A stretch of DNA of 47,311 nt from a virus (UHGV-1541059); one strand, 5' to 3'; counted from the stretch's first letter, positions 3,932-9,151 are shown. Numbers and translations are program-made. The notes: generated by a model not told the origin, from the sequence alone.

Positions 3932-5353
3932 TTAAAAAGATGCGTTATTCTGGTTGTTTCGTGGGGAGAATCGGCTTGTCGCCGGACGTTGTTGCATTGA
4001 CTGGATACAAGCTGACGCCGCGCGTGCCTGGTCGCATGGTAAAATGTTGCCGTTGTCGTCAAACCGCTGGTAAACAGTCCCCGTTTTCCCGTGACGGTTT
4101 TTTGAAACGATGATCTCCATGTATTCGCGGGCAACTGATTGTTCGTTGTAGTAGCCGTCGCGGTAGACCATGATGATCCGGTCTGCGTCTTGTTCAAGAT
4201 TACCGGAATCACGCAGATCGGAATTGTTCGGGCGCTTGTTCGGTCGTTCCTCAACGCGGCGGGATAATTGCGCCAGCGCCGCCACTGGCACGCGCAACTC
4301 TTTCGCCATCATTTTCAATGACCACGACAATTGCCCTACGGCGAGATCATGACGTTCGGCCTTAGCCAGCTTCATTAACCCGATGTAGTCAATCATTACC
4401 ATTCCCAGGTTAGGATGGTCCTGTTTCATCCGTTCGACGGTGGCGCGTATTTCCTCGACCGTTAACTGTGATGCGTCAACAATCCACACATCGAGATCGG
4501 CAAGGGCGCTCATTCCCTGGGCGACGTGCGCCCATCCTTCATCATCAAGTTTTACCGGATTACGTAGGCAATCCGTTGATAAGTTCCCAGCGCCAGCGAT
4601 CGCGCGTTCAGTCATCTGATCGAGTGACATTTCAAGCGTGAACAGTAAAACGCCTACCCGCTGACCTTCTCCGCCAGGGTATGGACGTTCAGCCGCCGCG
4701 CGGGCAATTGCCAGCGCCAATGCCGATTTACCAGACCCAGGGCGTCCGGCGATAAGTACCAGATCAGTAGCGTTAATGCCGCCTAACATTTCGTCGAGTG
4801 GGTCAATCCCTGTTTTGATGTTGTCAGAGTTCACGCCACACTCCATGCGTTTACTTAGCACTTCCGTGTATTCCTGGACCGCATCGCGCAACAGCACCGG
4901 GATAATCTTGTCTTTCGTTACTTTTAATTTTGAATACCGGGAATCAAAATATTTCATCGTCTCCCTGACAACTTCAAGCGTCCCGGTTTCCAGTTTGTAG
5001 CGAATATCTTCCATCAGTTCCAACATTTGCCGACGCTGATATTCCTCCTGTAATAGCGCGGCGTACCCCTTCAGGTTGGCAGCAGATGGACACGATCGCG
5101 CCGTTTGCATTAGCGGGACAAAATTTTCGTTACCGATTTCATCACCGACCATCAGAGCGTCAATAAGGTTTCTGTTTCTTGCTTGCGCCCGGATGATCTC
5201 AAACGCTCGTTTATATAGTGGAATGGTGAAGACTTCAGGATCGAGCGTAGCAAGAACATCTTGCGCGTTAGGAGTAAGCCCGCCCAACAGGAGGCCACCT
5301 ATCACAGCCGCTTCCCGTTCCTGGCGTAATGAGTTTATTTGCTCAGTCACCAT
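3932..5353 (-). CDS. dnaB: DnaB-family replicative DNA helicase
   Basis: Walker A GRPGSGKSALALAIA, DnaB-type N-terminal domain, C-terminal RecA-like core; GGAGG RBS. Confidence 0.9.
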   Translation of the reverse strand: MVTEQINSLRQEREAAVIGGLLLGGLTPNAQDVLATLDPEVFTIPLYKRAFEIIRAQARNRNLIDALMVGDEIGNENFVPLMQTARSCPSAANLKGYAALLQEEYQRRQMLELMEDIRYKLETGTLEVVRETMKYFDSRYSKLKVTKDKIIPVLLRDAVQEYTEVLSKRMECGVNSDNIKTGIDPLDEMLGGINATDLVLIAGRPGSGKSALALAIARAAAERPYPGGEGQRVGVLLFTLEMSLDQMTERAIAGAGNLSTDCLRNPVKLDDEGWAHVAQGMSALADLDVWIVDASQLTVEEIRATVERMKQDHPNLGMVMIDYIGLMKLAKAERHDLAVGQLSWSLKMMAKELRVPVAALAQLSRRVEERPNKRPNNSDLRDSGNLEQDADRIIMVYRDGYYNEQSVAREYMEIIVSKNRHGKTGTVYQRFDDNGNILPCDQARAASACIQSMQQRPATSRFSPRNNQNNASF

Positions 5354-5371
5354 TATGGTATAGCCTCCGGT

Positions 5372-6490
5372 TTACAAAATGGAATATTCAGGGTAATAAA
5401 CAAAGCGCCCGATCTCCCCGTGATCAGGACTGTAAATTATTACCGCCGCCAGCCGCCGCGACCGCCAGCCGCCATTCGTTGAATAAGCGTCTTTGCCAGC
5501 TAACGTGCCGTGGTACTCAACAACGCCCAACGATGATTCAATCAGCCGTTGGTGATGCCAGTGTCCACAATGAGCGTAAACAGACGACGACTTGCCGAAA
5601 TCCTCCCGCCAGTCAGAAACGCAGGCAGAAAGTAAATTTTCTGGCTTTTTGATAGTGTGCCCGTGGTGGTAAGCAAGAAATGTTTTGCCGTACTGTGTGT
5701 GATGGACGATAGCAGGTGACACATCAACCGTCACACGCGGTTCATCTTCGTAAAAAGCCGCCAGCGCAGCACGTAGCCAGATCATACCTGATTGGTCGTG
5801 ATTACCGGATAATACCTGGATCTCGACATCCTTATGATTTAGTAACATCTTCCCGACCGCACGCCGGACCGACCGGATCGCCACATAAACCAGTTTTGCG
5901 TAGCGTGAATCACAATCTAAAACGTGATTACTTGATGGCGTCACTGGTAACAGGCCGTCAGTGTGAAGCACATCACCGCCGAGAAGCAAAACAGCCTTTT
6001 CAGACATTGGCGCAGCGCCTACCGCGTAGTCGAAGAAGTCATTTAGCACGCGTTCAGCGATCCCGGTGTCGTAGCTCTCACCGCATTCAGCTTTATGAGC
6101 AAGCGCCCCGATATGCAGATCGAATACCGGATAAAGGGCCAGGCTTTTTTGAAAATCAATTTCCGGCACTGGCACGGCCTCCGCGCGGGGTATTTCTTCC
6201 GTGAAGGCGTCACAAGCAGATTGCATTAGCATTTCCATTTCATCGCGGTCACGGGCTGTTTTAATCCAGCTCATAATCACATTGCCATCCTTATCGACGA
6301 GCAATGACTCAGCATTGACGCCAAAACCCGGTGCGCGGCGCGTGGATATTAAACCGCGTTTCGCCAACCGTGCGCCCAGGCGTTCGACGTTGCGTTTTGC
6401 CATGCCATATTTTTCTGCGATCTGTTTATACGTCAGACCGTTATTATGTTCAGCGATTAACTGTTCATCGCTGATCTTTCTTTGTGACAT
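5372..6490 (-). CDS. Protein with N-terminal HTH fused to a calcineurin-like metallophosphoesterase domain
   Basis: HTH LTYKQIAEKYGMAKRNVERL; phosphoesterase motifs DLH, GGDVLHTDG, GNHD, HCGHWHH; GGAGG RBS. Confidence 0.6.
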   Translation of the reverse strand: MSQRKISDEQLIAEHNNGLTYKQIAEKYGMAKRNVERLGARLAKRGLISTRRAPGFGVNAESLLVDKDGNVIMSWIKTARDRDEMEMLMQSACDAFTEEIPRAEAVPVPEIDFQKSLALYPVFDLHIGALAHKAECGESYDTGIAERVLNDFFDYAVGAAPMSEKAVLLLGGDVLHTDGLLPVTPSSNHVLDCDSRYAKLVYVAIRSVRRAVGKMLLNHKDVEIQVLSGNHDQSGMIWLRAALAAFYEDEPRVTVDVSPAIVHHTQYGKTFLAYHHGHTIKKPENLLSACVSDWREDFGKSSSVYAHCGHWHHQRLIESSLGVVEYHGTLAGKDAYSTNGGWRSRRLAAVIIYSPDHGEIGRFVYYPEYSIL

Positions 6491-6651
6491 AACGTTAATT
6501 CCTCCGGTTTACAGAATGTATATTTATTTTCCGTAAAACGCGCTACAACGCAAAAACCCACCGCGTAACCCACTTGTAAGGGTGCAGTGTCTTTTTTGCG
6601 CCAGAAGCGCAATCAGGTGGCTAATTTTCGATTTTTAAAGTAGAAGGGTAG

Positions 6652-6753
6652 TTATGGATTAACTTGTAGATACAAGCCGCCGAACAAGGCGACGTTAACA
6701 GCGATAGCCATCGCGATCGCGAAAGCCAGGGCGAACATGCGTTTACCGTTCAT
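6652..6753 (-). CDS. Candidate 33-aa hydrophobic peptide (MNGKRMFALAFAIAMAIAVNVALFGGLYLQVNP)
   Basis: AGAGG RBS about 9 nt upstream of ATG, inside an otherwise non-coding 396-bp gap of the replication operon. Confidence 0.3.
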   Translation of the reverse strand: MNGKRMFALAFAIAMAIAVNVALFGGLYLQVNP

Positions 6754-6886
6754 AGCTAAATCCTCTCTGAAACGCTCCATAACGAGCTAATCGCAAAAAG
6801 GTAAGCAAGTGTAGCACCCCATGCGATTTAGCTCGCTGATGAGGTTGTTTTGTGGGTAATTTGGGATTTTTGCGGATCGTGATTGG

Positions 6887-7939
6887 TCAAAGAACGCCAG
6901 CGCGCGTATCACGTAGCGTTTTTGGTTTAAGCAGAAAATCAAGTGTCGCAGTGAAGCCATTGCCGAAGTAAAAATCTGAAGCCGTGTTTTTGAACGTTTC
7001 GAAGTAGGTGACAAAGCCGTTAATGCTTTTGTCTTTCAGGTAGTCAGTGAACGCATAGATCTTGCGTTCAAGATCCCGATCCAGTTCGGCAGGTGGTAAC
7101 AGGCCGTCAAACGTGCTGTTAAATGCTTCCACCACGTCGGCAGCGTTTACAGTAGCTGATAGCTTGCGCCATTGTTCAGCATCAGCCAAATACCCATCAA
7201 ACTTAGTTACCCGGCAAATGTTGATAGGCTTAGGTACTCCACCACGGCTACGCCATTGGGTTAAAGCCCACTCAATCACTAATGTGATCTCATCCTCCGT
7301 ATACGCTTTACGTGTTTTTGTTTCTGTCAGTAGTTCTACGAATGGCTTAGCATCACGACATTTGCATCCTGCCTTGTCGTTGTAGAAGGCAAGGCAACGC
7401 AATGCCGCTTCGTTTACGCCATCCTGATTGACCATTTTTTGTTCATTTTCGACAATACACGAAGTGTATATATCTTTTTCTCTTTCTTTTTCTACTTCTA
7501 ATTCTAATTCATGACCCTTTCCTGACCCGGTCATGACCCTATCATGACCTTTTTGTGTTGGATTGATTAACTTTTCTAATTTTAATTGCTCCTTCGCTGT
7601 GTTTATGGCGGCCCTGTAAGCGCTTTTAGAAGTCATTGATTGGTCCAGCCTTTTCAATAACTTTAAACAAGTTATGTGGCCTTGAGAACATTCAAACAAA
7701 CCAATTTCGATGAAGTATTTCATCATTTCTTCTATACGTTTTTCAGTAGATCCGACGTTTCGCGCAATTATTCTTGCGTCATGTCGTAGGTCAAAAGTTA
7801 GATTGTGCTGATCTACGTCATAAGTTATTAGTTCTAGGCAATACCAATAAAGCCCGTACCCTTCCAGGCCATAATCTAATAAAACGTTTTGAAGTTTTTC
7901 ATCGCGGTTCGCATCGCTATCATGCTTAAACCACTTCAT
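6887..7939 (-). CDS. Phage replication initiation / replisome organizer protein
   Basis: N-terminus MKWFKHDSDANRDEKLQNVLLDYGLEGYGLYWYCLEL typical of phage replisome-organizer N-terminal domain; GGAGG RBS; upstream of DnaB. Confidence 0.65.
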   Translation of the reverse strand: MKWFKHDSDANRDEKLQNVLLDYGLEGYGLYWYCLELITYDVDQHNLTFDLRHDARIIARNVGSTEKRIEEMMKYFIEIGLFECSQGHITCLKLLKRLDQSMTSKSAYRAAINTAKEQLKLEKLINPTQKGHDRVMTGSGKGHELELEVEKEREKDIYTSCIVENEQKMVNQDGVNEAALRCLAFYNDKAGCKCRDAKPFVELLTETKTRKAYTEDEITLVIEWALTQWRSRGGVPKPINICRVTKFDGYLADAEQWRKLSATVNAADVVEAFNSTFDGLLPPAELDRDLERKIYAFTDYLKDKSINGFVTYFETFKNTASDFYFGNGFTATLDFLLKPKTLRDTRAGVL

Positions 7940-7942
7940 AGA

Positions 7943-8197
7943 TCATTCCTCCGGCAATGCAATATCATAAATGTCGCCGTATTCGTCAGCGCGTTTAATG
8001 AATCCTTTGCGGATCAATGAATTTAATGCGTCAACAGTAGTATGCAGTGGCAGTTCGCACACTTTTGCGATCTCTTCGCGTGAAGCATGTGCGCGGCCTT
8101 TGTTGTCTGCCTTTTCTGCAAACGCAATTAAGACAAGTTTTTGGATCGGGCTGTTAAGTTTTACGTTCCATGCTTCATTCATCATGTGCATACTCAT
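7943..8197 (-). CDS. Small winged-HTH DNA-binding protein, first gene of leftward operon (Cro-like position)
   Basis: LVLIAFAEKADNKG...ASREEIAKVCELPLHTTVDALNSLIRKGFI resembles the HTH_36 fold; AGGAG RBS. Confidence 0.55.
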   Translation of the reverse strand: MSMHMMNEAWNVKLNSPIQKLVLIAFAEKADNKGRAHASREEIAKVCELPLHTTVDALNSLIRKGFIKRADEYGDIYDIALPEE

Positions 8198-8339: not shown

Positions 8340-8417
8340 TTAAGGTAAGTGCCTTTTTGTGCCTTCCGTTATCTTTTTCCTTGCGTCTTTGCAAGTATGG
8401 CCTTACCTTGTCTGCAA

Positions 8418-8430
8418 GTTTACAAAATGG
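8418..8430 (+). promoter_or_regulatory. Copy of recurrent motif GTTTACAAAATGG in the divergent cI / leftward-operon control region
   Basis: Exact 13-mer; candidate promoter hexamers on both strands nearby. Confidence 0.4.
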
Positions 8431-8503
8431 AATTTTAAGATCAAGGCTTAAAATACACGTTTTGTGACTTGCATCAAACTTTTTGAGGTTATAGGGTAGC
8501 GAC

Positions 8504-9151
8504 ATGAAAACAAAATGGTATGACTTAGCAAAGCAGCTCATGCGGGCGCAGGGCATGAGTCAGGATTCACTCGCAGATCTCATGGGGATAACTAAAGGCG
8601 GCCTGTCACACTGGCTTAACGGTCGCCGCGAGCCAAATCTTGAAGATATTGCGCGGATTATGCGGGCGCTTGGGCGTCGTCAGTTCACTGTTACACATGA
8701 TGGTATGGTCATTGATGATTCTGTTTCTAATACACTTCAGGCCGCACCGCCGCGTGATTTAGGTAGTTACCCGGTTATTGACTGGAAGGACACAGTAAAC
8801 AATATGGATGACACAAGGCGATCAGCATTACCACACGTTACGACTAGCGTTATTTGTTCAGATGATAGTTACTGGCTGGTTGCCAAAGGTGAATCAATGA
8901 ACGCGCCGCAGGGGTTAAGCATCCCGGCGGGGACGATGATACTTGTTGACCCGCACGCGCCAGCTATTGACGGCAAACTGGTTATAGCCCAGCTTGAGGA
9001 AGGGCAGATACCGACGTTTAAACAGTTGATTATTGATGGAGGTCAAAGGCTTTTACGTTCGCTCAATCCTCTGTATCCGCCAATCCCTATGAATCCAGAA
9101 TCAAAAATTATAGGCGTGGTGGTTGATGCGAAGATCGTAAACCTGCCATAA
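8504..9151 (+). CDS. cI: CI-like repressor (HTH plus S24 LexA-type autopeptidase domain)
   Basis: N-terminal HTH (MSQDSLADLMGITKGGLSHWLNG), C-terminal S24 motifs (GESM ... DGKLVIAQL ... FKQL). Confidence 0.85.
   Translation: MKTKWYDLAKQLMRAQGMSQDSLADLMGITKGGLSHWLNGRREPNLEDIARIMRALGRRQFTVTHDGMVIDDSVSNTLQAAPPRDLGSYPVIDWKDTVNNMDDTRRSALPHVTTSVICSDDSYWLVAKGESMNAPQGLSIPAGTMILVDPHAPAIDGKLVIAQLEEGQIPTFKQLIIDGGQRLLRSLNPLYPPIPMNPESKIIGVVVDAKIVNLP

Follow-up and report, generated by a model that had tools for sequence, protein, structure and literature searches.

A helix-turn-helix metallophosphoesterase gene between the replication initiator and DnaB helicase genes of a temperate coliphage, and its possible role as an accessory DNA nuclease

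Gene organization of the locus

A gene encoding a metallophosphoesterase (MPE) with an N-terminal helix-turn-helix (HTH) domain was identified in UHGV-1541059, a viral DNA of 47,311 nucleotides that is called the window here, at its full length. The gene lies on the minus strand at positions 5372..6490, starts with ATG, encodes a protein of 372 amino acids and, as an open reading frame (ORF) call matching phrog_704, is a member of the PHROG 704 family. With moderate confidence, the protein is interpreted as an accessory, Mre11-like nuclease that is tethered by its HTH, is independent of Rad50, is made together with the replication proteins and acts on host or structured DNA. Its place between a replication initiator gene and a DnaB gene had been noted in a preceding sequence-only reading of the window and was confirmed.

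The adjacent genes are also carried on the minus strand. Downstream, a gene at 3932..5353 encodes a DnaB-type replicative helicase similar to P22 gp12 (Pfam DnaB_C, 1.2e-75) and starts 18 nt past the MPE stop codon. Upstream, a gene at 6887..7939 encodes a replication initiator/organizer of 350 amino acids, composed of a Lin1244_N N-terminus (PF14297, 6.6e-11) and a P22 gp18-like C-terminal domain; this protein also matches PHROG O-like replication-initiation families. The MPE gene does not abut the initiator gene, as a variable spacer of 397 bp containing three small ORFs (6491..6886, minus strand) intervenes. The small gene at 7943..8197 (minus strand) encodes an HTH_36 protein of 84 amino acids (Pfam HTH_36, 1.8e-7) that resembles the N-terminus of replication initiators and matches PHROG replication-initiation families. 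The order of transcription is thus the HTH_36 gene, the initiator gene, the spacer, the MPE gene, dnaB, a MarR/Ren-like gene and NinB.

A Shine-Dalgarno sequence, GGAGG, is read at 6501..6505 (minus strand), 10 nt upstream of the MPE start codon. The same 13-nt ribosome-binding context, TGTAAACCGGAGG, is found ahead of both the MPE gene and dnaB (5354-5371 and 6491-6515). Both genes have a GC content of 0.51, against 0.42 in the initiator gene (0.42-0.45 in the initiator gene and spacer). The shared GC content and the identical ribosome-binding context suggest that the MPE gene and dnaB move as a pair or have been adjusted to each other, and the two look like a unit of other origin than the initiator gene. 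A simple consensus scan detected no convincing promoter or terminator from the initiator gene through dnaB, and co-transcription of the MPE gene with dnaB is likely.

Family size, distribution and annotation

The MPE protein matches the PHROG 704 profile, named "DNA repair exonuclease", with an E-value of 4.5e-138 (residues 4-368 against profile positions 2-387 of 390). In Escherichia phage MagusPhagus the protein of the same name shares 99.7% identity with it; the three window proteins that were compared with this phage are 97.5-99.7% identical. The window belongs to the temperate mEp021/mEp010 "mEpimmI" group (PMC11893012), and the MPE gene is not discussed in the genome paper on that group (PMC11893012).

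Homologues were found by tblastn in 2044 phage records. They occur in T1-like Drexlerviridae (53-66% identity), Jerseyvirus (about 44%), Kagunavirus, Dhillonvirus and Jedunavirus, and further in phages of Vibrio, Rhodobacter, Campylobacter and Thermus. An exhaustive profile search returned 5949 clusters at 50% identity with E<=1e-3, including 1739 with E<=1e-30, nearly all of 370-420 amino acids. The fusion of an HTH to an MPE is the standard architecture of a huge, already catalogued phage family and is not new. In a 2026 pangenome study, the gene was present in 508 of 522 Drexlerviridae, always directly upstream of the lysis cassette (PMC13164509), and it is a core gene of that family. Its annotations in source records are diverse and include hypothetical protein, phosphoesterase, DNA repair exonuclease, winged-HTH protein, oxidoreductase and DNA polymerase II small subunit. 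The family name "DNA repair exonuclease" itself stems from automatic annotation.

The same full-length HTH and MPE architecture is seen in the PHROG 704 proteins of well-known phages, including bas01_0050 of Bas1, gp72 of tunus and Jersey_24. The position of the gene differs: in the virulent phages it ends the DNA-metabolism block before the lysis and packaging genes, whereas in the window it stands between the initiator and DnaB genes of a temperate phage. A role as a component of a defence system was considered and is unsupported, PADLOC having returned no match to known anti-phage defence proteins; the papers describing RAZR, Metis and PUA-Cal-HAD do not involve this gene.

Domain architecture, conserved motifs and predicted fold

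Two domains are predicted in the protein. The N-terminal domain (residues 1-110; 6161..6490, minus strand) is modelled by AlphaFold2 (AF2) as a tri-helical HTH followed by a beta-hairpin (residues 58-78) and a long helix (79-97). The HTH itself covers residues 8-44 (6359-6469, minus strand), with AF2 helices at 8-16, 21-28 and 32-44. The MPE core, defined by conservation and by Foldseek, occupies residues 114-372 (5375..6151, minus strand) and carries motifs I-V. Conservation was assessed in 150 representatives that are pairwise no more than 50% identical and in an alignment of 81 diverse relatives with a mean identity of 37%.

Scanned alone, the protein gives weak Pfam HTH matches over residues 11-55 (E 0.003-0.04). 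When the 81 relatives are scanned singly, matches to HTH_1 (LysR), HTH_8 (Fis), Sigma70_r4_2 and GerE are obtained, the best with an E-value of 1.5e-9. W75 and G69 of the N-terminal domain are more than 90% conserved among the 150 representatives.

The motifs of the core are D124-x-H126, G172-D173-V-L-H176-x-D178, G229-N230-H231-D232, H276-G277 and G309-H310-x-H312. They match the five superfamily motifs (DxH, GD, GNH[DE], H and GHxH) in which the ligands of the binuclear metal site reside. D124, H126, D173, N230, H231, H276, H310 and H312 are 95-100% conserved in both samples, and H176 is 98% conserved among the 150 representatives. The GDxxH form of motif II is also that of Mre11, with H176 in the place of His52 of PfMre11. 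The near-invariance of the metal ligands argues that the MPE domain would be an enzyme rather than a scaffold. Two further loops are conserved specifically in this family, at residues 179-196 (about 5903-5956; T184, L191, D192, D194 and R196) and 332-346 (about 5453-5497; D334, G341 and R346). Both are modelled with low confidence and contain near-invariant residues that have no counterpart in canonical MPE motifs; they may form a substrate site or a partner-binding site.

Two AF2 models were obtained, with pLDDT values of 74 and 82.6. The second was built from a more diverse alignment and left the fold assignment no sharper. In that model most strand and helix blocks of the core have a mean pLDDT above 87. 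From about residue 114 to the C-terminus the chain is predicted to form an alpha/beta sandwich, and it ends with the MPE core at residue 372. No C-terminal capping domain is present in the AF2 models, the extra domain being N-terminal.

A Foldseek search of the PDB with the second model gave 107 matches at E<=1e-3, and all of the top 50 are MPEs or inactive proteins of MPE fold (Vps29, the Pol delta B-subunit). The top match is archaeal Mre11 (4tug, and complexes of MjMre11 with DNA), with an E-value of about 7e-7, a TM-score of 0.40-0.48 and about 12% identity. Further matches include LpxH, Rv0805, GpdQ, YfcE-like proteins, SapH, Vps29 and PolD DP1. At the level of Pfam, this protein has no match to Metallophos (PF00149/PF12850) at E<=0.1; at E<=0.01, Metallophos is matched by 22 of the 81 relatives and Metallophos_2 by 13. 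The PHROG 704 family is too divergent for the Pfam MPE models. Membership of the calcineurin-like MPE superfamily is nevertheless confirmed by motifs and fold together.

The sequence-only reading had described an N-terminal HTH and a complete set of MPE motifs, and both were borne out by the AF2 models, the HTH matches in the family, the conservation of the motifs and the Foldseek result. The alignment that it had named as a possible refutation found the metal ligands conserved as given above. The proposed domain search and structure prediction had a divided outcome, since Foldseek recovered the MPE fold and Pfam did not recover Metallophos in this protein.

Among the fold matches, Rv0805 (a cyclic-nucleotide phosphodiesterase), GpdQ, the diadenosine tetraphosphate (Ap4A) hydrolase SapH and LpxH have E-values within about tenfold of that of Mre11. 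These matches favour a phosphodiesterase or pyrophosphatase of small nucleotides (cyclic or linear signalling nucleotides, Ap4A or compounds related to dNTPs) that would serve in counter-defence or nucleotide salvage and employ its HTH in regulation or localisation. The frequent presence of genes for dNMP kinase and a haloacid dehalogenase (HAD) phosphatase next to the gene in other phages points in the same direction. Such an activity would leave unexplained both the conserved HTH of DNA-binding type and the 98% conservation of H176 in a nuclease-type GDxxH motif. The phage enzymes Acb1 and Apyc1, which act against signalling nucleotides, have other folds, which also counts against it. The toxicity of the Bas1 homologue in uninfected E. 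coli, described below, is more readily accounted for by nucleic-acid damage. A small-nucleotide enzyme is accordingly considered unlikely.

A relocated phosphatase of lambda NinI type, fused to an HTH, had also been offered in the sequence-only reading. NinI is an MPE-superfamily enzyme of the lambdoid early region, and lambdoid nin regions carry an MPE phosphatase, so that a Ser/Thr protein phosphatase moved from there is conceivable on the grounds of superfamily and location. NinI belongs to the phosphoprotein phosphatase (PPP) subfamily, however, and no specific similarity to it was detected: hhalign gave a probability of 0.1% with an alignment out of register, the GDxHG/GDxVDRG/GNHE signature is absent, and no PPP structure is present in the top 50 fold matches. 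This candidate was rejected on the hhalign value and the missing PPP motifs, and hardly any credence is left to it.

Genomic context across phage lineages

The context of the gene was compared at 80 IMG/VR loci, which form 29 clades when grouped at 80% identity. The order initiator-MPE-DnaB is found in the clade of the window (14 loci) and in none of the other 28. In 13 of these 14 loci, 18-19 nt separate the MPE gene from dnaB; in the remaining locus, mEp010 and a related prophage, an HNH homing endonuclease gene is located between the two genes. The distance from initiator to MPE gene varies from 400 to about 1480 bp in relatives. In 25 of the 28 other clades no DnaB homologue is present within the approximately 6 kb fetched on each side, and in the other three (L078, L086 and L091) a DnaB homologue occurs only 2.7-4.5 kb upstream. 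The impression that the fusion belongs to a replication operon does not extend to the family: most phages carry the gene at a place that is not part of a replication-initiation operon.

HNH genes recur around this gene. Insertions exactly between the MPE gene and dnaB are found at L009:7115-7660, at L014 (mEp010):7040-7630 and in L024, and the homologues of Bas1 and of a Vibrio phage likewise have an HNH gene as a neighbour (bas01_0051 and L006:6208-6717, respectively).

The neighbouring replication genes of the window are related to those of P22. Residues 264-350 of the initiator share 34% identity with the C-terminus of P22 gene 18, and the DnaB protein is 57% identical to P22 gp12 and helicases of the P22 group. 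In Stenotrophomonas phage BUCT708, the C-terminal half of the initiator is 49% and the DnaB protein 40% identical to the proteins of the window. The initiator and helicase genes of the P22 group and BUCT708 abut or overlap, with no MPE gene between them. Nothing is consequently "missing" at this position, and the MPE gene is an insertion in a P22-type initiator-helicase pair; the supposition that a helicase loader or primase is to be expected in this slot fails on the same comparison.

The initiator is itself a mosaic. Its N-terminal Lin1244_N/DUF4373 half is common to phages of Vibrio, Pseudoalteromonas and Pseudomonas, with identity of up to about 67%, and its C-terminal half is common to mEp010, BUCT708 and P22 gene 18. 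The initiator of mEp010 has a different N-terminus and the same C-terminus.

A replisome component, that is, a helicase loader or adaptor or a partner resembling DP1 or a B-subunit and linking DnaB with the origin or with the host polymerase, would account for the tight and conserved linkage to dnaB (the gap of 18-19 nt at 13 of 14 loci, the shared Shine-Dalgarno context and the equal GC content of 0.51). It would also agree with the presence of PolD DP1 and the Pol delta B-subunit among the fold matches and with the requirement of Bxb1 gp47 for DNA replication (PMC11795197). Against it stand the abutting initiator and helicase genes of P22 and BUCT708, the scattered positions of the gene in the 28 other clades, 25 of them with no DnaB gene within about 6 kb, the toleration of HNH genes at the MPE-dnaB junction, and the finding that Bas1 can dispense with its homologue. 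No match to DnaC, lambda P, DnaD-like or any other loader family was obtained in Pfam, PHROGs or NCBIfam, which was also the outcome of the loader check proposed in the earlier reading. A substitute for a helicase loader or primase was rejected on the lack of loader matches, the absence of the gene from this place in P22 and BUCT708 and the location of most of the family elsewhere, and replisome components as a class are judged quite improbable.

In the other lineages, the neighbours encode primase, SNF2 and DUF3987 helicases, VRR-NUC, Dam methylase and Erf/SSB. Further genes found beside it elsewhere encode a HAD polynucleotide 3'-phosphatase and dNMP kinase, followed by lysis, terminase or head genes. 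The neighbours are thus DNA-metabolism genes in every lineage examined, which counts for a role on DNA. A gene for an ATPase of SMC (structural maintenance of chromosomes) type, as in Rad50/SbcC, is found neither in the window nor in any context examined.

Many virulent phages carry the gene immediately ahead of their lysis, terminase or head genes, and relatives match HTHs of Sigma70 region 4, LysR and Fis type; a transcription regulator was therefore also weighed, for example an activator of middle or late genes in which the MPE domain serves as a sensor. The phage of the window has its own Q-like and N-like antiterminators, the gene here is in mid-operon among early genes, and the near-invariant catalytic residues argue for catalysis. 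Regulation through the HTH is thus a very improbable function.

Some of these neighbours are annotated as polynucleotide kinase (PNK). The similarity of these genes (L005:6223-6681, L004:4410-4709 and a cluster that includes L071) to T4 Pnkp is confined to its HAD 3'-phosphatase half. They contain a DxDGT motif, have no P-loop and match phrog_415, or phrog_505 at positions 159-291 of 295. The arrangement hints at a pair of nuclease and 3'-phosphatase.

The adjacency of such HAD-only genes in several lineages also favours an end-healing enzyme comparable to the MPE domain of bacterial Pnkp, with 3'-phosphatase or 2',3'-cyclic phosphodiesterase activity, that would mend nicked DNA or cleaved tRNA together with the neighbouring polynucleotide phosphatase/kinase. 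PNK and dNMP kinase are the commonest downstream genes in Drexlerviridae without SH3 (PMC13164509), which counts for the same function. In the window, however, no PNK, HAD phosphatase or ligase gene is near the MPE gene, motifs of Pnkp/lambda-phosphatase type are absent from the protein, and an end-healing enzyme alone is not expected to be toxic. End healing is improbable on this evidence.

Comparison with characterized metallophosphoesterases

Mre11/SbcD proteins have a binuclear MPE core in which the motifs DxH(L/I)G, GDxxH and GNHD are common to the protein described here, and they provide its best fold matches. The capping domain, the region that binds Rad50/SbcC and a nearby gene for an SMC-like ATPase are all absent here. 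Searches of PDB sequences with the protein and with its profile gave nothing significant; the sole MPE matches of the profile were SbcD/Mre11 of T. maritima, with non-significant E-values of 0.64-1.5. The comparison with E. coli SbcD by hhalign gave a probability of 3%. The lack of a capping domain, of an SMC partner and of significant sequence similarity excludes the protein from Mre11/SbcD, but it may work like an Mre11 nuclease core. Of the functions offered in the sequence-only reading, the Mre11/SbcD-like one is thus the best as to motifs and top fold matches, and it did not hold as to profile similarity to SbcD.

MPEs of cluster A mycobacteriophages (Bxb1 gp47, L5 gp54 and A10ZJ24 gp48) are likewise stand-alone phage MPEs encoded inside a replication gene cluster, and Mre11 and DP1 are their structural neighbours, as they are here. 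A10ZJ24 gp48 degrades DNA in vitro and in vivo and is toxic, and the phage genome requires it to replicate in M. tuberculosis (PMC12287305). Bxb1 gp47 is needed for phage DNA replication (PMC11795197), and limited exonuclease or DNase activity and toxicity have been reported for cluster A MPEs (PMC12287305; PMC11795197). These proteins differ from the one described here in their length of about 255 amino acids and in having no HTH, and gp47 also moonlights as the recombination directionality factor of a serine integrase. The hhalign comparison with Bxb1 gp47 (probability 29.5%, E 5.7e-4, 102 columns over motifs III-V) indicates similarity at the level of the superfamily only.

The MPE of Pseudomonas putida, a single-stranded DNA (ssDNA) endonuclease encoded in an Lhr-MPE repair operon, also stands alone without a capping domain. 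Its residues His81 and His113 are essential for ssDNA cleavage and dispensable for hydrolysis of bis-p-nitrophenyl phosphate (bis-pNPP) (PMC7826289). H176 (motif II Asp+3) and H231 (motif III Asn+1) are their equivalents in the present protein and are equally conserved. In contrast to the phage protein, the P. putida enzyme lacks an HTH and works in cellular repair, where it is linked to the Lhr helicase; it is likened to the present protein by the shared motifs.

Predicted function as an accessory DNA nuclease

The protein would be an early-expressed phosphodiesterase with a binuclear metal site, probably of Mn2+, that acts on DNA. Its stand-alone core would resemble that of Mre11, and its own N-terminal HTH would tether it to nucleic acid in place of the capping domain and the Rad50/SbcC partner. 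In the temperate mEpimmI-type coliphage, the gene appears to have been inserted between a P22-type initiator gene and the DnaB helicase gene. The gene is probably transcribed and translated together with dnaB, and the enzyme would therefore be made at the start of replication. Its likely job would be to cut or trim the host chromosome or structured or ended DNA (ends, flaps and hairpins). Such cutting would favour replication or recombination of phage DNA or takeover of the host, and origin firing and helicase loading would proceed without need of the MPE.

We infer DNA as the substrate, and the biological role, from several lines of evidence. Beside the conserved histidines that correspond to the DNase residues of the P. 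putida enzyme and the DNA-metabolism neighbours, the occurrence of an HTH throughout the family fits a nucleic-acid substrate, and PolD DP1, an editing exonuclease, is among the fold matches. The homologue bas01_0050 of phage Bas1, which is 53% identical over its full length, was toxic in E. coli and could not be expressed (bioRxiv 10.64898/2026.02.16.706125). Bas1 mutants with missense or frameshift mutations in bas01_0050 are viable and escape DRT7/UG10, and lambda escapes DRT7 through loss of Gam, an inhibitor of RecBCD (bioRxiv 10.64898/2026.02.16.706125).

Several observations weigh against an Mre11-like nuclease. The fold matches to Mre11 are weak in the models (TM-score below 0.5, about 12% identity) and stand barely above those to LpxH, Rv0805, GpdQ and Vps29. 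The profile links to SbcD are not significant (E 0.64; hhalign probability 3%), and the link to Bxb1 gp47 is no more than suggestive at an hhalign probability of 29.5%. Most MPEs have a His at motif III Asn+1, which therefore does not discriminate. The toxicity and the DRT7 escape come from a protein of a virulent phage with 53% identity, and neither identifies the substrate. The phage of the window also encodes Erf, SSB, Abc2, NinB and NinG, so that it is not evident why it would need a further DNA-processing enzyme. The literature yielded no biochemical study of the PHROG 704 family, and the assignment of DNA as substrate is indirect.

A more specific version of the nuclease reading is doubtful. 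In it, an Mre11-like nuclease guided to DNA would, together with the phage helicase, make or process ends for the switch to recombination-dependent or sigma-mode replication, and its action on DNA or on substrates of RecBCD, in parallel with lambda Gam, would be the trigger of DRT7/UG10.

The PHROG 704 family is among the commonest phage DNA-metabolism genes without a demonstrated function, with about 5900 clusters at 50% identity; it is present in Jersey-, Kagunavirus-, Dhillonvirus-, Vibrio- and Rhodobacter-type phages and is core in T1-like phages. If its members are HTH-tethered, Rad50-independent Mre11-like nucleases, a widely copied annotation that was guessed would be corrected, a trigger or sensitivity determinant for DRT7 would be explained, and a new architecture would be added to the MPE nucleases. 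A true DRT7 trigger would make a very common phage gene a general "danger" determinant. The importance lies with the family and the DRT7 link, to which the copy in the window adds only a lineage-specific gene position.

Other features of the replication region

One ORF of the spacer (6652-6753, minus strand; 33 codons) encodes a strongly hydrophobic peptide, MNGKRMFALAFAIAMAIAVNVALFGGLYLQVNP, and is an annotated coding sequence in MagusPhagus and mEp010. Within the initiator gene, three overlapping direct repeats of 19 nt, of TCATGACCCttTCcTGACC type, are spaced by 11 bp at 7509-7549 and are partly palindromic. They are flanked by two AT-rich copies of TTCTAATT(C/T)TAATT, at 7496 and 7574. The arrangement at 7496-7587 looks like an iteron-type origin inside an initiator gene, as in lambda O. 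An imperfect inverted repeat of 27 nt at 8413-8473, located in the divergent region upstream of a CI-like repressor gene (8504-9151, plus strand), is a plausible candidate operator.

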